From an uncultured bacterium (GTDB taxonomy: Bacteria > Actinomycetota > Acidimicrobiia > Spongiisociales > ZC4RG35): a stretch of 64,000 bases of DNA. The DNA lies in contig CAVVSY010000004.1 of NCBI GenBank assembly GCA_963751005.1, positions 384,502 to 448,501 on the forward strand. The letters are read 5' to 3'. The position numbers and the translations under genes are program-made. Below are positions 4,292-46,873 of this stretch, piece after piece. Position 1 is the first letter of the stretch, and each line of letters opens with the position of its first letter. The notes under the pieces are model-generated. The model did no database searches and had not been told where the DNA came from. It saw only the letters and a list, made by a program, of their open reading frames with translations.

Positions 4292-5467
4292 TCACACCGC
4301 TTCGAGGGCGTCTTCGAGGGCGGCGATGAGGTCTTCGGCGTCCTCCAAACCGACGGAGAGACGGACCAGGCCATCCGTGATCCCCGCGGCGATGCGCTCG
4401 TCACGGGGAACCGCGGCGTGGGTCATCGTGACCGGATGGGTGATCAGGGACTCCACCGCCCCGAGATTCTCGGCGAGACTCCACAAACGGATCGAGTCCA
4501 TGAGACGTTTCCCCGCTTCGACACCTCCATGCACCTCGAAACAGACCATGGCGCCGTAGCCGGTGGCCTGCTTCCCGGAGAGCTCGTGCTGGGGGTGGTT
4601 GGCCAGACCCGGGTAGTTCACGTAGTCCACTTTCTCATGGGTTTCCAGGAACTCGGCCACGGCCATGGCATTGGCCGACTGGGCGTCCATGCGGGCGCTC
4701 AGCGTCTTCGTGCCCTGGAGGGTCAGCCAGGCCACCATCGGCGACATCACGAGACCCGCCGAGATGCGGGCGAAGGCGATCTTCTCCTGTAGTGCGGCGT
4801 CGTTGACCACGACGGCGCCGCCCAGGGTGGCGTTGTGCCCGTCGAGGAACTTGGTGGTCGAGTGGATGATGACGTCGGCGCCCAGTTCGAAGGGACGCTG
4901 GTAGTACGGGGTGAGGAAGGTGTTGTCGGTGACGTGAAGGACACCCCGCTGGCGGCAGATCGCCGACACGGCGGCCAGATCCGTCACCTTCAGCGTCGGG
5001 TTGGCCGGGGTCTCGGTGAAGACCAGCTTGGTCCGCTCGGTGATCGCTGTCTCCACCTGAGTGATGTCCGAGCTGTCCACGAAGCTGACGTCCACCCCGA
5101 ACTTGGTCAGGAACTGGTCGGCGAATCGGTAGGTGCCGCCGTAGACCACGTCGGCGATGACCACGTGGTCACCAGTCTCGAGCAGGGCGAGGAAGACGGC
5201 GACCGTCGCCGCCATCCCCGAACCGTATGCAGTGGTGTCGACGCCGCCCTCCAGGACGGTCAGCTTCTCCTCGAATGCTCGCACCGTGGGGTTGCCGGCG
5301 CGGGCGTAGGAGTAGCCCTTCCCCATGTAGGTGTCGACCGACTCCTGGACGAACGTCGTCGACTGGTAGATCGGGGTGAGGATGGCCCCGGTCACGGGGT
5401 CAGGCTCGACCCCGGCATGAACTTGCTTGGTGCGAAAACCCATGACCCGATTGTGGCACGGGGGCAA
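4292..5467 (-). CDS. PLP-dependent trans-sulfuration enzyme (cystathionine gamma-synthase / gamma-lyase / O-acetylhomoserine sulfhydrylase family)
   Basis: Intact ORF. Cys/Met-metabolism PLP fold with HSTTKFLDGH (PLP lysine) and YTRF/ANPT motifs. The likely start is the internal MGFRTKQVHAG, around 5443. Confidence 0.85.
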   Translation of the reverse strand: MPPCHNRVMGFRTKQVHAGVEPDPVTGAILTPIYQSTTFVQESVDTYMGKGYSYARAGNPTVRAFEEKLTVLEGGVDTTAYGSGMAATVAVFLALLETGDHVVIADVVYGGTYRFADQFLTKFGVDVSFVDSSDITQVETAITERTKLVFTETPANPTLKVTDLAAVSAICRQRGVLHVTDNTFLTPYYQRPFELGADVIIHSTTKFLDGHNATLGGAVVVNDAALQEKIAFARISAGLVMSPMVAWLTLQGTKTLSARMDAQSANAMAVAEFLETHEKVDYVNYPGLANHPQHELSGKQATGYGAMVCFEVHGGVEAGKRLMDSIRLWSLAENLGAVESLITHPVTMTHAAVPRDERIAAGITDGLVRLSVGLEDAEDLIAALEDALEAV

Positions 5468-5469
5468 TC

Positions 5470-5486
5470 GAAGCGTGTGCAGTTGA
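5470..5486. repeat. Partial, left-arm-only copy of the 45-bp palindromic repeat family (AAGCGTGTGCAGTTGA...)
   Basis: 16/16 identity to the left arm of the palindromes at 22381, 31065 and 46389, then diverges. Confidence 0.5.
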
Positions 5487-6635
5487 CCGACTCAGGCGGT
5501 CGAAATGCGCATGCACTCGACTGCCCGAACGTTGCAGATCACCGACTCGCCCGGCTGATCGGCACGTCAGATCGCGACGCCCGACGGACTCTCCCTGTGC
5601 GGAGGAGTTGATCGAGGCAGACTGCGGGTTCGGAGATGAGCATTTCCAGGTGAAGACGGACCACGATGAAACCGTGGGCGGCGCCTCTTGCATCCCGCAG
5701 TCGCATCACGTTCATGGTCGGCTTTGCGGGTGTGCCACCGGCGCCCGTCACGCTTCGACGATCAGGCTCGCCACGGCGGGGATGTAGGCATCGACGGTTC
5801 GCTGATCACTCGATCGAGACCGAATCGGCATCTGACGGGTCGTACCGGGCGGTATCGGGGTGGTCGAGAAGACGGTAGAGAAGCCGCTCCAGTTCCGAGT
5901 GGCCGGTGGTTGATAGGCGTCGCTCGGCTCTCGAGCCAGGATCGGCTTCGCAGCGCCTGTCAAGCCCGGGTTGACAGACTAAGACGAGTCGTCAGTAGGA
6001 TCGGTCGAAATCCGACGTCAGCACGATCGCCCGGGCGAGGACGGTCGTCCACGAACACGCTCGAGGTTCTGGGCTGTGAGGGCCGATCTGGCGAAGGTCA
6101 CGATGGTTTCGGCGGTCATGGTCGACCGCTGAACCCTGCCTTGGGACCACCTCGAGCGTCGTCGAAGTATCGGGACCGGATCACCCGGGCGAGCGGAGAT
6201 CGGGCGTTCCCGTCGGGACGGACTATCACCACCGGCCTGCCTGGTCGGGAATCCGGACGAAGTCGTGGATGTAGGGCCGCCGACCCGCCGGCGACGACGG
6301 ATCCTCGGACGGCTCATCAGGGCGAGGCTTGGATCTGTCTGCTCCCATTTGGGAGGGGCGATGGCAACGGCGTACACCGACGGAGCAAAGTTCCCGATCC
6401 AGAGGCCCTTTCGGAAGTACGTCTGGTCGCGATCATGGACCTTGTCAGACCGGCGAGATCCGGCGCACTGAGCTCGGGAGAATACGCCGTACTGATGGGA
6501 CATGCGAATTCGATCGAGGCCGTCGTCCGGATGCATGAGATCGAACCATGTACGGACTGCGTCGGGCAGTTACAACCCCGCCGTCGTGTGCTGTGAGCTC
6601 GACTATGCGACCGTCGAAATGCACAGTCGAAACCG
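5487..6635. other. About 1.15-kb segment with no convincing coding assignment (possibly decayed sequence or a long 5' leader)
   Basis: All six-frame ORFs here give Arg/Pro-rich low-complexity translations without recognisable domains. GC appears slightly lower locally. GTCGAAATGC(G/A)CA occurs near both ends (5499 and 6612). Confidence 0.3.
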
Positions 6636-9728: not shown

Positions 9729-11803
9729 ATGATGTCTGAGCCGATGGAACTCATCACTCCGGACACCTACATCAATCGCGAGCTCTCGTGGCTCGAGTTC
9801 AACGAGCGCGTCTTCGCCCTGGCCGGCCGTGAGGACTTCCCCCTCCTCGAGAAGGTGAAGTTCCTCGCCATCTGGTCATCGAACCTCGACGAGTTCTTCC
9901 AGGTCCGTGTGGCCGGTCTGAAAGAGCAAGTGGCTCATGGTCTTCGCTCGGTGACTCCTGACGGTCTCACCCCGGGACAACAGCTGGCGGCGATCCGGGC
10001 CGTGGTCGACTCCCAGTATCAGGAGGTCTCCAAGCGATTCCTCTCCGAGATCGCCCCTGCCTTGGCCAAGGAGGGGATCGTCTTCGGCGACTACTCGACC
10101 CTCGACGACGACGATAGGGAGTTCCTCGACGGACAGTTCGCCGATCTGGTGTTCCCGGTGGTGACCCCGTTGGCGGTCGACCCGTCCCATCCCTTCCCTT
10201 ACATCTCGAACCTCTCACTGAACCTGGCGATCGTCGTCCGAAACCCGGAGACGACTCTGACCCGCTTCGCCAGGGTCAAGATCCCGCCGATCCTGCCCCG
10301 CTTCGTGGTGCTCCCCGACGGCGAGCGGTTCATCGCCCTCGAGCAGGTGATTGCAGCCCATCTCGACTCCCTGTTCCCGGGGATGGAGATCCTCGGCCAC
10401 CATGTGTTCCGGGTCACCCGAAACGCCGACTTCGAGGTCGAGGAGGACGAGGGCGGCGATCTGCTGATGAGCATCGAGTCGGAGCTGACCCAGCGCCGCT
10501 TCGGCCGGATGGTGCGTCTCGAGGTCCACCCTGACATGCCCAACGACGTTCTCGATCTGCTGATGCGGGAGATGGGGGCGACCGAGGACGACGTCTATCG
10601 GGTCGACGGGCCCGCTCGACCTGTCAGGGCTGTGGGGGGTGTCACGACCTCGACCGGCCCGAGCTCAAGTTCGGGGGTTCGTCGGGCGTCACGCCGTCCC
10701 GTCTCATCTCAGGCGGCGGCGAGCCGGTGGACTTCTTCGAGGTCATCCGGCAGGGCGACCTGATGGCCCATCACCCCTACGACTCGTTCTCCACCACGGT
10801 GGAGGCCTTCGTGCATCCGGGCGGCGCGTGACCCCGATGTCCTCGCGCTGAAGATGACGCTTTACCGCACCAACCAGGGCAGTCAGATAATGCAGTCACT
10901 CATCGATGCCGCGGAGCGGGGCAAGCAGGTGGTAGCCCTGGTCGAGCTGAAGGCCCGTTTCGACGAGGAACGCAACATCGAGTGGGCGCAACGTCTCGAG
11001 GATGCCGGTGTGCATGTCATGTACGGCGTCGTCGGGCTGAAGACCCACACCAAGATCGCACTTGTCATGCGCCGGGAAGGTGACCGTGTCGTCCGCTATG
11101 CCCACATCGGGACCGGGAACTACAACGAGACCACGGCACGAATCTACGAGGACGTCGGTGTCTTCACCGCGGACCCCGATCTCGGTTCCGACCTCTCCGA
11201 TCTCTTCAACTATCTGACCGGCTACAGCCGTCAGACCCGCTATCGATCGCTCGCAGTGTCGCCGGATGGGGATCCGGAGCCGCATCGAGGACCTGATCGC
11301 TGCCGAAGCGTCGCGGCCCGATGGCCACATCACCATGAAGATGAACTCCCTGGTCGACCCCGGGATCATCGCCGCGCTCTACGTGGCATCTCGACGCCGG
11401 CGCCCGGGTCGATCTGTGTGTCCGGGGGATCTGCAGTCTCATTCCCGGCGTCCAGGGCTCTCCGAGAACATCAAGGTCCGCTCCGTCGTGGGCCGCTACC
11501 TGGAGCATTCGCGGATCTACCGCTTCGGTGCCAGAGGCCGAGACGCGGCAGTACTACTACGGATCGGCGGACATGATGGAGCGCAACCTCGACCGGAGGG
11601 TCGAGGCGCTGGCCCCGGTGACCGACCCCGATCTCCAGTTCCGCATGGACGAGATCCTCGACGTGGTCTTCGCCGACGACGTCCTGGCCTGGGAGCTCGG
11701 GCCCGACCGGGAATGGCGACGCGTCCACGGTGACGACGGCCACCGACACCCATGTCGCCCTCCAGGAACTCGCCCTCGCCCGCAGCAGCGCTCACTCTAA
11801 GGC
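9729..11803 (+). CDS. ppk: Polyphosphate kinase 1; at least three frameshifts
   Basis: Pieces 9729.., 10854.., 11266.. and 11528.. cover the PPK1 N, head, and both PLD-like C domains ([29 protein letters not shown]; HSRIYRFG). Confidence 0.85.
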
Positions 11804-19623: not shown

Positions 19624-21483
19624 ATGCTCGAATCGATCTCCTCACCATCTGATCTCCGGCTCCTCGACCACGAGCAACTGGCAGCGTTGTCCGAGGAGAT
19701 CAGGACGTTCATCCTGGAGAAGGTCTCCAAGTCCGGCGGCCACCTCTCCCCGAACCTGGGCGTCGTCGAGCTCACCTTGGCGATGCATCGGGTGTTCGAC
19801 TCGCCGTCCGACCGCTTCATCTGGGACGTCGGGCACCAGGCGTACGTCCACAAGATCGTCACCGGGCGGGCCGATCGCTTCGACGAGCTCCGGCACACCG
19901 GTGGGCTTGTCCGGTTATCCGAGTCGTGAGGAGTCCGAGCACGACTTCGTGGAGAACAGCCATGCCTCGACGTCGCTCAGCTATGCGTTGGGCCATGCCC
20001 TCGCCGGGTACGAAGGCTGGACCGTGGCGGTCATCGGTGACGGCGCCTTCACCGGCGGCATGGCCTACGAGGCGCTCAACCACATCGCGGTCGCCAGACC
20101 GGAGCGTCTCATCATCGTCCTCAACGACAACGGTCGCTCCTACGCCCCAACCGTGGGTGGTCTGGCGGCGTTGTCCAACCTGGCCCACTACCGCATCGAT
20201 CCTCGCTACGAGCGCGCCAAGAACACGATCGGGCGGATGCTGCGGGGAATCCCGCTCGTCGGGGAGACCGCCGACGAGATGGCGAGCCGGATGAAGGACG
20301 CGGTCAAGCAGATCCTCGAGCCGGCGACCGTCTTCGACGCCCTCGACCTCAAGTACACCGGTGCGATCGACGGCCACGACATCGCCCTGATCGAGGAGAC
20401 CCTGCAGCAGGCCAAGACCTACGCCGAGCCGGTCGTGGTCCATGTCATCACCGAGAAGGGCAACGGCTACCAGCCGGCGATCGAGGACGAGGAGGAGAAG
20501 CTCCACGGCGTCGGCGCATTCGATCTCGCCACGGGGAAGGCGCACAAGGCCGAGCTCAAGCTGACCGACGTCGCCGGAAGGGCGGTGCTCGCCGCCGCCA
20601 CCACCCGTCCCGACCTCATCGGGGTCTCGGCGGCGATGATCTCCACCACCGGTCTGAAGGAGATGGCGCAAGCGTTCCCCGACCGTGTGTTCGACACCGG
20701 GATCGCCGAACAGCACACCGTGACCCTGGCGGCGGGGATGGCCATGGCAGGCAAACGTCCGATCGTCGCCCTCTACTCGTCGTTCCTGCAGCGCGCCTTC
20801 GACCAGATCGTCACCGATGTCGCCCTCCACGACCTGCCGGTGACCTTCCTCATCGATCGGGCGGGGGTCACCGGGCCCGACGGCCCTTCCCACCACGGCG
20901 TCTTCGACCTGTCGTATCTCCGGATGATCCCCAACATGACCATCGGGGCCCCGGCCGACGCCACCGAGCTCTGCGCCATGATCGAGACCGCGGTCGATCA
21001 CGACGGCCCGATTGCGGTCCGCTATCCCAAGGGTGGCGCGGTGTCCGTGCCTTCACTGCCGGTGGAGCCGCTTGGAGGTCGGTCGTGCCGAGCTCATCAG
21101 CGAGGGTGACGATGTGCTCCTGGTCGCCGTGGGTCGCATGGTCGAGGTCGCCGAGAAGGCGGCCGCCGACCTCGCTGGGAGGGGTGTCGCGCGCCGGCGT
21201 GGTCAATGCCCGCTGGGTCAAGCCGCTCGACCCGAGGATCGTGGAATGGTCAGCCCCCGTGACCACGGGTCGTCACCCTCGAAGACAATGTGATCGCCGG
21301 CGGTTTCGGTGCGGCCGTGATGGAGCTCCTTCGCCGCGGGCGGGCTGGTGAAGCCGGTGACCAACATCGGCGTGCCCGACGGGTTCCTCCCCTTCGGGTC
21401 GGCCTCAGACCTGTTGGAGATGGTGGGCATGGACCCGGGCTCGGTGGTCGAGCGGTTGCTCCTCGCCATCGGCTCCTCGACCT
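19624..21483 (+). CDS. dxs: 1-deoxy-D-xylulose-5-phosphate synthase; four or more frameshifts
   Basis: TPP-binding GHQAYVHKI...[16 protein letters not shown], the transketolase-like Pyr domain and the C-terminus ...[20 protein letters not shown]. The stop shares CTAG with the convergent permease. Confidence 0.85.
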
Positions 21484-22322
21484 AGTTGCGTCCCGGGATG
21501 GCGACGCGCCGCTCGTACCAGCGCAGAAGCAGGCTGAGCCCCAGCGTCAGCACGACGTAGATGATCGCCAGGATGAAGTACGACTCCCGGAAACCGGAAA
21601 GAGCCACCGGCGTAGAGCCGGGCCATCTGGGTCACCTCACGCACGGCGAGGATCGAGACCAGTGACGTGTCCTTCATCAATGAGATCAAGTCGTTGCCCA
21701 GTGCCGGCAGCATGTTGCGGACCGCCTGGGGGAGGACGATGCGACGCATGATCTGACGGTCGCGGAGACCCAGGGCCCGACCGGCCTCCGACTGCTCGCG
21801 GGGGACCGACTGGATGCCCGCTCGAAACACCTCGGCGATGAACGCCGCATAGAAGAGACTCAGGGCAGCTGCCCCTCGCAACGCCTGGGGAAAGGCGCGA
21901 CTGGGCTGGTTGAGCAGCTGGGCGAAATCGGTTACCAGGACGAAGGCCACCAGGAAGATGAACACCAGCATCGGGATGCCCCGCACCAACTCGATATAGG
22001 TGGCGGCGATGTTGGAGAGCCAGGCGTTCTTGGAGACCCTGGCCAAGCCGATCATGAGACCCAAGACGATGGCGACGATGAACGACCCGAAGGTCAGATA
22101 GAAGGTCATCATGATCCCCTCGAGCCAGTTGAAGGGGATCGGGAAGATCGAGTAGAAGGCCTCGCGGTAGTTCTCGTTGAAGACCACCGCCACGACCATC
22201 GTCCCGATGATCAGCAACATCGCCACCAGCCACCAGGGGAACTCCTTGGCGTCGAAGCTGTAGGCACCGCCGACGGTGGGCGCAGGCGGCTCCGGCTTCT
22301 CGGTGACGGCTGGCTGGGTCAT
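21481..22322 (-). CDS. Polar amino-acid ABC transporter permease (HisM/GlnP type); one frameshift near 21600
   Basis: TM protein with the EAA loop (EAGRALGLRDRQIMRRIVLPQA). True C-terminus ...LLLRWYERRVAIPGRN in a second frame. Confidence 0.8.
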
Positions 22323-22380
22323 GGCGGTGGAACATAGTGAGACGCCGGGTCAGATGACCCGGCGTCTCACAGAAACGAAG

Positions 22381-22428
22381 GAGCGTGTGCAGTTGAGGTC
22401 GCATATGCGACCTCAACTGCACACGCTC
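22381..22428. repeat. 48-bp perfect palindrome, copy A of the repeat family (GAGCGTGTGCAGTTGAGGTCGCAT|ATGCGACCTCAACTGCACACGCTC)
   Basis: Read directly. It sits 5 nt 3' of the substrate-binding-protein stop and 58 nt 5' of the permease start, inside a co-directional operon. Confidence 0.9.
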
Positions 22429-30529: not shown

Positions 30530-31042
30530 ATGCGACGTCTCCTGCCGGCATTCGCACTGCTCTTGGCGGCGTGCTCCCCAGCGACGGGGACCACGACCAC
30601 CGTGCCGGCTGCGGACACGACCACTTCGGTGGCCACCAGCACGACCCGGCCGCCACCCGATTGCCCGGCGCCGCCCTACGAGCTGACGTTCTTGCCGGTG
30701 GGCGTGGGCACCGGCGACCTCGACCCGGACGACGTCGAACAGGACGTGTGGACCTCGGTGCCCGGATCGAATACGACACTGGTGCCGCGGTCCGACGACT
30801 CGGTGGCCATCGCCCTGGTCAGGGGCACACTGCCCCCGGTGGATTGGCCGGGGGAGAAGGGGGAGGTGACGATCGACGGGACCCGTGCCGCCGTCGGCCC
30901 GCATCCCGATGGCTCCTGGGTGGCCGGCTGGTACGAGGAGCCGGGGGAGCGATGCGACCTCTACACGATGGTCTTCTACCCACCGTGGTCGTCGACCGAC
31001 GTCGAAGCCGTCCTCACCGGGATGAACCGGGTCGGGGGCTGA
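30530..31042 (+). CDS. Hypothetical lipoprotein
   Basis: MRRLLPAFALLLAACSP lipobox followed by a Thr-rich linker. Start abuts the upstream stop (TAGATG). Confidence 0.6.
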   Translation: MRRLLPAFALLLAACSPATGTTTTVPAADTTTSVATSTTRPPPDCPAPPYELTFLPVGVGTGDLDPDDVEQDVWTSVPGSNTTLVPRSDDSVAIALVRGTLPPVDWPGEKGEVTIDGTRAAVGPHPDGSWVAGWYEEPGERCDLYTMVFYPPWSSTDVEAVLTGMNRVGG

Positions 31043-31064: not shown

Positions 31065-31109
31065 AGCGTGTGCAGTTGAGGTCGCTATGCGACCTCAACT
31101 GCACACGCT
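31065..31109. repeat. 45-bp palindrome, copy B of the repeat family
   Basis: AGCGTGTGCAGTTGAGGTCGC-tat-GCGACCTCAACTGCACACGCT with perfect 21-bp arms. Lies between convergent genes (lipoprotein + and SPFH -). Confidence 0.9.
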
Positions 31110-31129: not shown

Positions 31130-32058
31130 CTACTGGGTGGTCCCGGCTGCCTCGGTCTGGGTTGCCTTGAACAGCTCGCCGATGGCGGCCACTGAGCCGA
31201 GGACACCGGAGGTGTCCAGAGGCAGGAAGATCTTGGTCGCCTGCCCGTCGGCCACCCCCTGCAACGCCTCCAAGTAGCGGATGGCGATCACATCGGGGGT
31301 GGGGTCACCGTTGTGGATGGCGGCGAACACCCGCTCGATGGCCTGGCCCTCACCTTCTGCCACCGTCAGCTTCTGGTACTTCTCGGCATCGGCGACCCGC
31401 TTGATCGCCTCGGCCTGCCCGTCCGCCTCGAGGACCTGGGACTCCTTGAGACCCTCGGCCTTGAGGATGGCCGCTCGCTTGAGACCCTCCGCCTCGGTGA
31501 CGGCGGCACGCCGATCGCGCTCCGCCTTCATCTGGCGGTGCATGGCGTCGGTCACGTCCACCGGCGGCTCGATCCGCTGGATCTCGACCCGAACCACACG
31601 AACACCCCACTTGTCGGTGGCATCGTCGAGGATCTGGCGGAGCTTGGCGTTGATCACCTCACGTGAGGTGAGCGCCGCGTCGAGGTCGAGGTCGCCGACC
31701 ACGTTCCTGAGGTTGGTCTGCGCCAGCTTGGTCACGGCCAGGATGAAGTTGCCCACGTTGTACTGCAGCTTCACCGGGTCGGTGGCCTCGTAGTAGATGA
31801 CGGCGTCGACGGTGACGACCACGTTGTCCTTCGTGATCACCTCCTGTGGCGGCACGTCGATCACCTGCTCACGCATGTCCACCTTGGTCAGCCGCTTCAC
31901 GAACGGCATGACCCAGCGCAGACCCGAGTCGACAGTCCGCTCGTATCTGCCCAGGAACTCGATGAGGCCCTTCTGGAAGGGTCGCACCACCTTGAACCCG
32001 GCGGCGGCGACCACGATCAGCCCCACAGCGAGGAACACGAACAGGATTACCAGTGGTT
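31130..32058 (-). CDS. SPFH/band-7 protein (stomatin/prohibitin-like, HflK/C-type)
   Basis: Start [15 protein letters not shown] (TM) with RBS AGGAGAAAGGA. PHB domain ...[17 protein letters not shown]... and a coiled-coil C-terminus rich in EA/KR. Confidence 0.85.
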
Positions 32059-35922: not shown

Positions 35923-35974
35923 CCGTTCTGTGCGGATCCGCGACGCCTGGAGCGGCGCAGATCCGCACAGAACG
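35923..35974. terminator. Long hairpin between convergent clpB and a membrane-protein gene (16-bp perfect stem CCGTTCTGTGCGGATC / GATCCGCACAGAACGG, 20-nt loop), a candidate bidirectional terminator
   Basis: Read directly. It starts 26 nt after the clpB stop and ends 9 nt after the minus-strand gene stop. Confidence 0.5.
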
Positions 35975-35982
35975 GGGTTGGG

Positions 35983-41715: not shown

Positions 41716-41760
41716 AGCGTGAGTAGTAGAAGTCGTATGGCGACTTCAACTACTCACGCT
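41716..41760. repeat. Divergent copy D of the palindromic repeat family (AGCGTGAGTAGTAGAAGTCG-tatgg-CGACTTCAACTACTCACGCT)
   Basis: Same end sequences (AGCGTG...CACGCT) and core (GAAGTCG/CGACTTC) as the other copies. Three positions differ from copy A in both arms in a base-pair-preserving way. Confidence 0.7.
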
Positions 41761-41797: not shown

Positions 41798-41837
41798 CGA
41801 CGAAGGGGAGCGGCGTCTCCGCTGCTCCCCTTCGTCG
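41798..41837 (-). terminator. Hairpin 12 nt downstream of the CsbD-like gene stop (14-bp perfect stem CGACGAAGGGGAGC/GCTCCCCTTCGTCG, 12-nt loop)
   Basis: Read directly. Positioned as an intrinsic terminator for the minus-strand small gene. Confidence 0.5.
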
Positions 41838-43893: not shown

Positions 43894-44478
43894 GGCCTCG
43901 GCTTCCAGGGCGACCAGGGCCGCCCTGAGGACCTTTCCGTTCAGTCGGTAGCCACGACGCAGCTCGTCGGTGACCACCAGGTTCGTGCCGGTGCCCGTCG
44001 GGGCGCCTACCGGTTCGTGGATCTCAGGGTCGAATGGCTCGTCGAAAGTGGGGATCAACTCGAGACCCGCACCTTTGAGCACATTGAGGAGCTGCTCACG
44101 GGTGTTGATCATCCCCGAGTAGAGCTTGTCCTCGGTCTCGGTCTGAGGTTGCGTGGACAGGGCGGCATCGAAACTGTCGAGGACGGGCAGGAGACCCATG
44201 ACCACCTTCTCGGTGGCGCGATGGAGCATGACCTCGTTCTCACGGGTCGGTCCGCTTTCGGTAGTTGTCGAAGTCGGCGGCAACCCGCTTGAGGTCGTCG
44301 AGAAAGGCACTGGCCTCGGCACGGCTGTCGTGCAGCTCGCCGAGGAGCATGGCCACGGCCTCTTCCGGCTCATCGGGCAGCTCCAGACCCAGGGTGTGCG
44401 GGTCTGGAGCCGGTCTGGTGGGGAGGATCTCGCCCTCGACTACCTGGTCGGTTGACGCCCGGTGTCGTTCTCATTCAT
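43888..44478 (-). CDS. grpE: Nucleotide exchange factor GrpE; two or more frameshifts, stop not resolved
   Basis: Start ATG overlaps the dnaK stop (GATGAATGA). Core ...[27 protein letters not shown]...[36 protein letters not shown]. Confidence 0.8.
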
Positions 44479-46302
44479 CATCGTCGACGATCTCGGCCTC
44501 GACGACGTCGTCGTCGTCGTCATCTCGAGGTCGCTGACTCGTCGGCACCGGTCTGCGGCGGATGCAGCCTGCTGATAGAGACGTGTCGCCATCGCCTGGC
44601 TGGCGCCGATCAGCTCGTCCATCTTGGCGCGGATGGCCTCGGAGTCGGCATCGGCATCGGCGAGGACCTCGGTGAGAGCCTGCTTGGCAGTCTCGACGGA
44701 AGTCTTCTCGTCGTCGGTCATCTGCTCGCCCGACTCCTCGATCAGCTTGTCGGTCTGGTGGACGCAGCTGCTCGGCCTGGTTCCGGGTCTCGATCGTCTC
44801 CCGACGCTTGGCGTCCTCCTCGGCGTAGGCCTCGGCGTCCTTGACCATCCGCTCGATGTCGTCCTGGGCGAGGGCAGTGCCACCGGTGATGGTCATCTTC
44901 TGCTCCTTGTTGGTCGCCAGGTCCTTGGCGTTGACATGGACGATCCCGTTGGCGTCGATGTCGAAGGTGACCTCGATCTGGGGCACACCCATCGGTGCCG
45001 GGGGCAGACCGGTGAGCCGGAACTTGCCCAGGCTGTTGTTGTCGTTGGCCATCGTCCGCTCGCCCTGCAGGACGTGGATCTCGACCTCCGGCTGGTTGTT
45101 CTCGGCCGTGGTGAAGATCTCGGACCGCTTGGTCGGGATGGTGGTGTTGCGCTCGATCATCCGGGTCATCACCCCACCCTTCGTCTCGATGCCGAGGGTG
45201 AGTGGGGTGACGTCGAGCAGGAGGATGTCCTTGACGTCGCCCTTGAGCACACCCGGCCTGGATGGCGGCGCCGGCGGCTACCACCTCATCGGGGTTCACC
45301 CCCTTGTGGGGGTCCTTGCCCGGTCAGCTTCTTGACCAGCTCCTGGACGGCCGGCATGCGGGTCGAGCCTCCGACCATGACGATGTGGTCGATCTCGGCC
45401 ACGGTGATTCCGGCGTCCTTGATCGCCTGCTCGAACGGCCGCTTGGTGCGGTCGAGCAGATCCTCGGTGAGCTTCTGGAACTCCGAGCGGGTCAGCTTGT
45501 ACTGCATGTGCAGGGGCCCGGCGTCGGTGGCGGTGATGAACGGGAGGTTGATCTCGGTCTCGGCGACGGATGACAGCTCGATCTTCGCCTTCTCCGCCGC
45601 CTCCTTGAGACGCTGGGTGGCCATCCGGTCGGTCGAGAGGTCGACACCGTGGTCGGCCTTGAAGGTCTTGACCAGCCATTCGATGACGGTCTGGTCCCAG
45701 TCGTCACCACCGAGGTGGGTGTCGCCCGACGTTGCCTTCACCTCGAACACGCCTTCACCGATCTCGAGCACGGACACGTCGAAGGTGCCACCACCCAGGT
45801 CGAAGACGAGGATCGTCTGGTCGGACTTCTTGTCGAGCCCGTAGGCAAGAGAGGCGGCTGTCGGCTCGTTGATGATGCGGAGGACGTTGAGACCGGCGAT
45901 CTGGCCGGCCTCCTTGGTGGCCTGACGCTGGGCGTCGTTGAAGTAGGCGGGGACGGTGATGACGGCGTCGCTGACCGTGTCGCCCAGATAGGACTCGGCG
46001 TCCCGCTTCAACTTCATGAGGATGCGGGCCGAGATCTCCTGGGCGGTGTAGCCCTTGCCGTCGATGTCGATCGTCCAGTCGGTTCCGATGTGACGCTTGA
46101 CCGATCGGACGGTGTGGTCGGGGTTGGTGATGGCCTGACGTTTGGCAACCTCGCCGACCAGCACCTCGCCGTCCTTGAACGAGACGATCGATGGTGTGGT
46201 CCGCCCACCCTCGGCGTTGGGGATGACGGTGGGCTCGCCGCCCTCGAGGACGGCGATGACGCTGTTGGTGGTGCCTAGGTCGATGCCTACGGCGCGTGGC
46301 AT
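44471..46302 (-). CDS. dnaK: Chaperone DnaK (Hsp70); two or more frameshifts
   Basis: N-terminus [22 protein letters not shown].... [31 protein letters not shown]. Substrate-binding domain and lid in frames 44471..45250 and 44440... C-terminus ...[16 protein letters not shown]. Confidence 0.9.
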
Positions 46303-46388: not shown

Positions 46389-46435
46389 AAGCGTGTGCAG
46401 TTGAGGTCGTATAGCGACTTCAACTGCACACGCTT
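46389..46435. repeat. 47-bp palindrome, copy C of the repeat family (one arm mismatch, which would be a G-U pair in RNA)
   Basis: AAGCGTGTGCAGTTGAGGTCG-tata-GCGACTTCAACTGCACACGCTT. It sits 5 nt 3' of the cytochrome c stop and about 90 nt 5' of the dnaK start. Confidence 0.9.
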
Positions 46436-46440
46436 GGGGA

Positions 46441-46873
46441 TCAGGCGGCGAGACTCTTGATGTACTCGACGAGATCGGTGATCTGGGTGTCGTCGAGCTG
46501 GTCGGCGTAGAACTTGGGCATGATGTCCTGGAATCCCTCGACCACCTGGTTGGCGGGATCGACGATCGAGTTGAACAGATAGGCGTCGTCGGCCACCACT
46601 TCCTCACCACTGGCCAGGGGGCGTATCGAACCGGCCAGACCTTTCCAGGTCGGCCCCGAGCCCGGGCGCCCGTCGGTCGGTGTGACACTGCAGACAGCCC
46701 TGGCCTTCGGCGAGGACGGCGCCGCGTGCCGCCGCCTCGGCGTCGACGGTGATGGTCAGGGTCGAGGTGGCGGTGCTTCCGTCGCCGAGACTCTGTCCGG
46801 AGAAGAGAAAGAGGCCGATCCCCACGCCCACGACGATGATGAGGGCGAGCGCTCCCTCGGTCCAACTGCTCAT
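46441..46873 (-). CDS. Membrane-anchored mono-haem cytochrome c (class I); one frameshift near 46610
   Basis: N-terminal TM ALALIIVVGVGIGLFLF, haem-binding CLQCH. C-terminal ...DIMPKFYADQLDDTQITDLVEYIKSLAA* in a second frame. Confidence 0.75.

Follow-up and report, generated by a model that had tools for sequence, protein, structure and literature searches.

Results

Four long palindromes in the window

The window (the whole 64,000-nt stretch of DNA analysed here) contains four full copies of a long palindrome, named A to D and given without strand, together with one partial arm. An inverted-repeat scan of the window ranks A-D at or near the top of its palindromes by length. Copy A has a 46-nt core (22382-22427; AGCGTGTGCAGTTGAGGTCGC-ATAT-GCGACCTCAACTGCACACGCT), and with the flanking G/C it forms a perfect 48-bp palindrome (22381-22428) whose 24-nt arms are 100% complementary and have no spacer, in agreement with an earlier reading of this DNA made without database searches (hereafter the sequence-only reading). 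Folded as DNA, it reaches -30.7 kcal/mol (z = -12). This copy is found in an amino-acid ABC operon on the minus strand, in the intergenic region between the genes for the solute-binding protein and the permease (SBP_bac_3 and BPD_transp_1 by Pfam), 6 nt past the SBP_bac_3 stop codon. A unique 16-bp hairpin (22337-22370, given without strand) adjoins copy A; it does not belong to the family (12 bits with the covariance model described below), and the element is thus located beside, and not in place of, a conventional hairpin. Copy B (31065-31109), already described as having perfect arms, consists of 21-nt arms of 100% complementarity around a TAT loop. Its two neighbours converge on it: a hypothetical gene, whose end is at 31042, lies on one side and an SPFH/Band_7 gene (Pfam), which ends at 31130, on the other, with the stop codons 22 and 20 nt away, respectively.

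Copy C (46390-46434; 46389-46435 in the inverted-repeat scan) is 95% complementary, with the single arm mismatch that had been reported before. This mismatch had been taken to allow a G-U pair, but it reads G.T on the plus strand only; on the minus strand, which carries the sense sequence of the two adjoining genes (for a cytochrome c and for DnaK, Hsp70 by Pfam), it is A.C. The element is 88 nt upstream of the dnaK start and, after correction of a 1-nt frameshift by comparison with contig L076 (95.5% identical), 6 nt past the cytochrome c stop. Copy D (41716-41760) is also 95% complementary and belongs to an AGT/GAAG subfamily. Compared with A-C, it differs at stem positions 7, 9 and 16, each time with a compensating change in the other arm as previously recognised, and it also has an uncompensated A/A mismatch at position 13. 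It is placed 91 nt past an MT0933/CsbD-like gene, beyond the terminator-like hairpin of that gene (41798-41837, given without strand), and 33 nt before an arsR start, between the hairpin and the -35-like TTGACA of this ArsR-family gene.

The partial left arm is a 15-nt sequence (AGCGTGTGCAGTTGA, plus strand), which spans 5472-5486 and not 5470-5486 as given earlier. It is embedded in another, imperfect hairpin (5462-5526; DNA fold z = -4.4) just upstream of a gene for a PLP enzyme of Cys/Met metabolism (Pfam), and is probably a decayed or rearranged copy.

With up to three mismatches allowed, the 21-nt arm has seven matches in the window, against 0.01 expected from shuffles, and the single-strand folds of the units range from -21 to -31 kcal/mol (z -8 to -12). 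A covariance model built from 42 distinct members of the family retrieves exactly copies A-D from the window (62-69 bits, E about 1e-12), the next-best score being 12.4 bits, a gap of 50 bits. No conservation between copies was observed when their flanks were compared. A search of the window with Rfam gave no match at the gathering score, and only sub-threshold generic hairpins around copy A. HAIR (CTTGAGT-N7-ACTCAAG) and CIRCE (TTAGCACTC-N9-GAGTGCTAA) are operators upstream of heat-shock operons; the palindrome is unrelated to both in sequence and three of its four copies are away from heat-shock genes, so that it is, as already stated, neither of them. The window also includes a hairpin with a 24-bp stem (CCGTTCTGTGCGGATCCGCGACGC-CTGGA-GCGGCGCAGATCCGCACAGAACGG, 35923-35975, 92% complementary) between a convergent gene pair, which is single-copy in the window and not a member (9.6 bits with the model).

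A dispersed family of hairpins in Acidimicrobiia

A scan of 185,579 species genomes with the pattern AGCGTG-N10-GTCG-loop-CGAC-N10-CACGCT returned 71 loci. At the ten free stem positions, these loci follow a bimodal distribution: 33 have no mismatch and are real hairpins, and 27 have four or more mismatches and are chance matches. The real copies are concentrated in a small number of genomes. At least 22 loci are found in the Acidimicrobiaceae MAG CAZAHX and at least seven (about 8 per 522 kb) in the Acidimicrobiia MAG JBBDML. Real copies are also carried by four related 'Actinomycetota' MAGs (accessions JAUPK...). In the metagenome Ga0190271, a scan with the arm sequence identified at least 12 contigs with copies from a population close to that of the window, and three of these contigs, 95-97% identical to the window, keep copies B, C and D in place. 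The window itself is assigned to Acidimicrobiia by SPFH homologues with NCBI taxon names. In total, at least 58 non-redundant copies were collected from Acidimicrobiia MAGs and metagenome contigs. The palindrome is therefore a dispersed family that is not confined to the window, as had been suspected, and it is repeated many times in one genome, like REPs in the broad sense. The proposed figure of hundreds per genome is an extrapolation; the density measured in the window is 4 copies per 64 kb. No match to the arm or the element was found in phage, plasmid and viral collections. The searchable literature contains no match to the arm sequences, and no paper in it ties REP, REPIN or RAYT to Actinobacteria or Acidimicrobiia.

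Outside these genomes, single or double look-alikes were detected in Cellulomonas phragmiteti, Thermoleophilia, a Streptosporangiaceae MAG and two Chloroflexales. The two look-alikes of C. phragmiteti NBRC 110785 (L057 562-606 and 6269-6313) are near-identical (GAGCGTGAGGGGYTGCCGTCGCCAGGCGACGGCAACCCCTCACGMTC), lie within 6 kb of each other, and are both located 7 nt past a stop codon; this organism is in culture and is a possible entry point for experiments. The Chloroflexales loci (L038 1269-1339; L056 1777-1847) are 71-nt hairpins starting with GTAG/GTTGGGGCG. Apart from two compensated differences, they agree in the outer 21 nt, and both have a GTCGC-AAA-GCGAC top; the 8 bp in the middle are entirely different, though paired. 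Kineosporia sp. A_224 has three loci matching the pattern (L002 3716-3841; L017 6897-7022; L022 6611-6774), in which the middle is unpaired. They are organised as (GAGCGTG-N5)x3 ... GGTCGC-N4-GCGACC ... (N5-CACGCTC)x3 with a 12-nt period, and the AGCGTG-to-GTCG spacing is that of the Acidimicrobiia hairpin. In L022, 25-bp outer inverted repeats (TTTGCTCTGCCATCACCAGCGAGCC and its complement) delimit a MITE-like unit of about 165 nt. Nested copies are one possible explanation of these Kineosporia loci, and iterated sites for a binding protein are another.

Covariation in the stem

The repeated unit is a single symmetric stem of 21-24 bp with a loop of 3-5 nt, and no tag is left unpaired. The stem base is conserved as YR-AGCGTG-W-G-Y-A..., a GTCG(C) block adjoins the loop, and the middle varies by lineage but always pairs. 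The conservation of the AGCGTG and GTCG blocks is not independent evidence, since the search pattern required both. We do not claim their conservation across phyla, as it is imposed by the pattern and a few long unrelated hairpins may match by chance. The recurrence of AGCGTG and GTCGC across orders, together with the GAGCGTG units of Kineosporia, is suggestive of a conserved recognition factor.

Among the 42 distinct copies, 96.1% of the cells are paired against 79% in shuffles, a percentage inflated by the prefiltering of this set to at most three arm mismatches; the bimodality of the mismatch counts shows that the two classes divided by this filter are real. Both sides of the stem have changed in 145 cells, compared with 37 in shuffles, and none of 500 shuffles reaches the observed value. 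All ten unconstrained positions covary, with changes on both sides, and sliding the pairing partner drops pairing to 25-43%. The pairing of the hairpin is under selection, and the earlier proposal to this effect now extends to copies from several genomes.

In the population of the window, positions 7 (T/A), 9 (C/T) and 16 (G/A) are polymorphic and occur in five combinations, each of them mirrored in the opposite arm. The few asymmetric copies (copy C of the window and L086) are G.T intermediates. Because the combinations are mirrored within the population, copy D is a member of a second subfamily and not a locally compensated copy; its AGT...GAAG arm is common elsewhere and is also dominant in other MAGs. 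The sequence-only reading, which had treated the differences of copy D as compensation in situ, was mistaken on this point.

Location at the 3' ends of genes

The gene context of the 58 non-redundant copies was determined with our own simple GC3-based gene caller. Both flanking genes were called for 44 copies, and these neighbours are convergent in 20 cases, tandem in 19 and divergent in five. Distances between the element and the closest stop codon typically fall in the range of -15 to +22 nt. About 15 reading frames terminate inside the element, which supplies the stop either as TGA at positions 5-7 or by adding its first A to a flanking TG. Judging from its sequence, the AGT-type arm has stops in all three frames (TGA at 5-7, TAG/TAA at 9-11, TGA at 13-15). 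The copies are thus extragenic and enriched at 3' ends, in convergent or tandem contexts, as are REPs in the broad sense.

The stem is not followed by a U-tract: across the 58 copies, there is no excess of T at flank positions +1 to +6, which sets the element apart from intrinsic terminators, and any termination at these sites would therefore be non-canonical. Among the window copies, a T-rich tail is present only for copy A, on the minus strand. The two flanking bases are YR in 44 of 58 copies (76%) on one side and 37 of 58 (64%) on the other, against a background of 24%, and complementary (inverted) 3-bp flanks are in excess (13 vs 3.3 expected). The evidence for a target-site duplication is not convincing in the same 58 copies, with 15 direct 2-bp repeats for 9.6 expected (P = 0.035) and one 3-bp repeat for 0.4 expected.

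Gain, loss and turnover at orthologous sites

Copies have been gained and lost among close relatives. Copy D is present in L099 (95.4% identical) and missing in L072 (93.6% identical), in which the ArsR protein is identical and the CsbD-like terminator and the TTGACA promoter box are the same. The comparison does not reveal a clean insertion, as one side of the junction differs by 6-9 nt: the empty site reads CTCACTCT at the point corresponding to the end of the element, CTCACGCT. This empty site contains no palindrome, which led us to reject a general mechanism of insertion into the loops of terminators.

A broader set of relatives can be compared at the 3' end of the SPFH gene next to copy B. 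The window and L081 have a TGC..GAGG variant at this site. L031 (MAG JBBDML), which is syntenic with the window over about 7 kb at 70-85% nucleotide identity, has an AGT..GACG variant 7 nt past the stop codon, with four compensated differences that match the other copies of that genome. In L115 (92% amino acid identity), an element starting CGC..AGAT is interrupted by the end of the contig, 20 nt past the stop and within AGCGTGCGCAGAT. In L103 (94%), a conventional terminator is followed by a variant having only the 9-nt base GCGTGTGCA in common (25 bits with the model). A plain U-tailed terminator is the only feature in L107-114 (95%), L105 has a plain GC-rich terminator hairpin, and neither element nor terminator hairpin was detected in L104 and L106. 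These states imply that the element is old at this site or that the site has been hit repeatedly; either way, the copies track the consensus of their own genome, which parallels the long-known species specificity of enterobacterial REPs.

Orthologous copies are stable in sequence. The orthologous copies of B, C and D (copy C being present in L076 and the SPFH-site element of copy B in L081) show one arm substitution in 126 nt and two loop changes, between relatives that are 3-5% diverged overall. Look-ups by exact protein match with the solute-binding protein, the 170-aa neighbour of copy B and the CsbD-like protein yielded no further filled or empty sites. In the MAG CAZAHX, a complete element is located within the truncated base of another (AGCGTGAGTAGTCA-element-TGACTCACGCT; L052 4300-4372), which is a nested or replacement event.

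Search for a mobilising enzyme

No transposase of any kind was found adjoining the copies in about 0.8 Mb of locus DNA. A tblastn search of the loci and the window (about 0.65 Mb) with RAYT (NF047646) and IS200 TnpA sequences retrieved just the gene in L009 from which the query itself came. Likewise, no IS with ends matching the arms and no arm bounding a gene was found in the locus DNA examined, and solo-arm matches in the metagenome are about as numerous as expected by chance and are in unrelated lower-GC contigs. A RAYT-type (HUH/Y1) enzyme is our default guess for a candidate mobiliser.

The L009 gene is a genuine RAYT (88 bits with NF047646; PF01797). It was rejected as a partner of the element, since the adjoining pattern match is non-palindromic, within a gene and due to chance. 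A RAYT cluster that emerged from all-against-all clustering of the ORFs of the loci was likewise discarded as an antisense artefact of OsmC genes. RAYT-like Y1 genes do occur in Thermoleophilia-type Actinomycetota (L009 3129-3572; L116-L120 3001-3438), in a conserved neighbourhood (prfA-prmC ... RAYT-OsmC-OsmC-DUF1385-L31) that is consistent with vertically inherited, domesticated genes. These genes are preceded by GGGGACAGTCCCC hairpins and not by hairpins of the AGCGTG type. Such hairpins fit the published GGGGWSAS motif of the TIR families associated with RAYT-like genes ('TIRYT'), which resemble the present element in being moderately abundant inverted repeats, some of them self-complementary.

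Discussion

Based on the evidence presented here, we favour, with moderate confidence, the view that the copies form, in Acidimicrobiia, a lineage-specific family of interspersed hairpin repeats resembling REPs. The reading of the palindrome as REP/MITE-like is thus upheld and strengthened, its position matching that of published REPs; the option of a classical MITE is considered below. REP-type repeats are well studied in Proteobacteria and, in the literature searched, essentially undescribed in Actinomycetota.

The resemblance to the GTAG REP/BIME/REPIN elements and their RAYTs, known from E. coli, Pseudomonas and Stenotrophomonas, is extensive. In both cases, short extragenic palindromes with a species-specific sequence and a conserved fold are present in many copies, mostly between convergent or co-directional genes and less than 20 nt from the upstream stop, which they sometimes supply; in both, copies are found inside operons after binding-protein genes and their presence varies by strain. 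The published description of GTAG and CGTC REPs includes the same stop-proximal behaviour, supplied stops included (PMC3733652). The architecture, however, is different. GTAG REPs have imperfect stems of 8-15 bp and an unpaired GTAG, and they form doublets of self-folding REPs, whereas the Acidimicrobiia hairpin is single, symmetric, usually perfect and 21-24 bp long, any GTAG being within the stem and paired. In addition, no RAYT is near the Acidimicrobiia copies examined, and the host is an actinomycetote, for which the literature searched has no description of such elements. The hairpin has neither the unpaired tag nor the 8-15-bp stem of the GTAG and CGTC super-families (Di Nocera 2013). 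CGTC REPs, mainly from alpha-Proteobacteria (dRS3, RPE-4/6), follow the same positional pattern and likewise have no known dedicated transposase (PMC3733652), but their 8-9-bp stems, terminal unpaired CGTC and CCA tail have no counterpart in the Acidimicrobiia hairpin.

In this reading, the element may spread or be homogenised as a folded single strand or via gene conversion. Only well-paired 'master' copies would then propagate, giving rise to compensated subfamilies, and copies would survive just where they are harmless or useful. Once transcribed, the long stem at the end of an mRNA could serve as a 3' barrier or a partial terminator, and the comparison with known elements suggests that it probably acts as a 3'-end RNA hairpin. 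REPs in malE-malF of E. coli protect the upstream message. The message upstream of the element might be shielded in the same manner as by the REPs in malE-malF and yjdMN, for instance that of the solute-binding protein gene ahead of copy A. The yjdMN element of E. coli, REP325, is a partial terminator and stabiliser (bioRxiv 10.64898/2026.03.23.713779). The location of copy A past the binding-protein gene of an ABC operon fits this analogy, and by the same analogy the elements may set relative expression in operons such as this transporter. The wobble of copy C, located on the non-sense strand, counts against a reading at the mRNA level.

Alternatively, the hairpin could be a non-mobile device of the host, i.e. 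a bidirectional terminator without U-tract or a barrier to RNase III or 3'-exonucleases, kept identical by gene conversion and by co-evolution with a host factor that binds RNA or DNA and recognises the conserved blocks at the stem base and near the loop. Its confinement to the first ~20 nt past stops and its enrichment between convergent genes would be expected of such a device, as would its persistence behind one SPFH gene in four lineages, which each carry the variant typical of their genome, the low rate of arm substitution at orthologous copies, and the conservation of the AGCGTG and GTCG blocks around a free middle, albeit these blocks are imposed by the search pattern. Intrinsic terminators, including the U-tract-poor ones of Actinobacteria, are also stable stem-loops directly past stops and potentially bidirectional between convergent genes. 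However, they are unique and arise independently, whereas the Acidimicrobiia copies share one sequence, lack a U-tract and in some cases come after a separate conventional terminator. A pure host terminator is disfavoured by three further observations: copies D and C are behind another terminator and directly before promoters, and the element of L103 is beside its conventional terminator without replacing it; copy D is missing in a close relative in which the genes and the terminator around it are present, within a distribution that is patchy among relatives; and nested copies exist (L052). We regard this explanation as unlikely, though less so than the other alternatives.

A second alternative to the REP-like reading is a minimal MITE, in which the two terminal inverted repeats of a DDE IS would be joined head to head to give the arms, and the unit would be moved in trans by cut-and-paste. 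Two 21-nt inverted arms around a spacer of 3-5 nt, the high copy number and the presence/absence polymorphism would agree with this, and the AGCGTG/GTCGC loci of Kineosporia belong to a unit of about 165 nt that is bounded by outer inverted repeats of 25 bp. MITEs such as Correia/NEMIS, RUP, ERIC and Nezha are similarly non-coding, dispersed and bounded by inverted ends, and they can terminate or stabilise transcripts. Yet MITEs span 100-300 nt and contain an internal segment, and they come with defined target duplications and a recognisable parent IS; none of these features was seen for the Acidimicrobiia hairpin. A classical MITE is disfavoured because no fixed target-site duplication and, in the locus DNA examined, no parent IS were found. 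Furthermore, no gene in this DNA is bordered by solitary arms, orthologous sites keep their elements, and the compensated arm changes between lineages would be needless for a transposase that reads each end separately. Taken together, a MITE origin appears rather improbable.

Equally doubtful in our estimation is a mover other than RAYT or DDE enzymes, either a hairpin-specific enzyme recognising AGCGTG and GTCGC at a fixed spacing, or fold-back/template-switch copying into palindromes or terminators. Such a mover would explain the excess of complementary flanks, the nesting in L052 and the 12-nt units of Kineosporia, and also the presence of both blocks in hairpins from Cellulomonas, Thermoleophilia and Chloroflexales. 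If true, this would amount to a mobile 'portable terminator' system common to Actinomycetota and beyond.

Finally, a duplex-DNA site for a dimeric palindrome-recognising protein (nucleoid-associated, regulator or partition-type), as the sequence-only reading had also envisaged, is very improbable, for although the symmetry is perfect, often through the centre, the symmetric blocks are conserved and in Kineosporia GAGCGTG recurs every 12 nt on both sides of GGTCGC-N4-GCGACC with no pairing in between, the middle of the stem is free to vary at ten positions that stay complementary, which duplex binding does not require, the 45 bp are far beyond the length of known operators, and the copies are at the 3' ends of genes and not at promoters.

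The family of REP-like hairpins favoured here documents a REP lifestyle in uncultured Acidimicrobiia, with one long, perfect, untagged and symmetric hairpin that is parked within a few bases of stop codons and both persists and turns over in place. It also provides a clean natural data set for the study of compensatory and concerted hairpin evolution.

A second conserved palindrome type, ..CCTCAGGTAGTACGGnCCG-TAT-CGGnCCGTACTACCTGAGG.., was encountered in different Acidimicrobiia genomes (L105 1313-1364 and about 10985-11030; L026 4793-4840). One of its copies is in a divergent promoter region, and this palindrome may be an operator or another repeat family.

Several observations concern the assemblies. 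The 2.9-kb contig of L013 (1-2864) is a perfect palindrome centred on an element and is a fold-back artefact, and several other contigs have one of their ends inside a copy or next to it (L115 8934-8953; the starts of L001, L019 and L055). The elements thus disturb metagenome assemblies through breaks or fold-backs. In the window itself, one C that is absent from L076 splits the cytochrome c gene (about 46600-46610), dnaK is divided into 45286-46302 and 44471-45250 by an apparent frameshift (45250-45290), and the ABC permease has an aberrant arginine-rich C-terminus (about 21405-21600). For the frameshifts of the window, assembly indel errors are more likely than pseudogenes.
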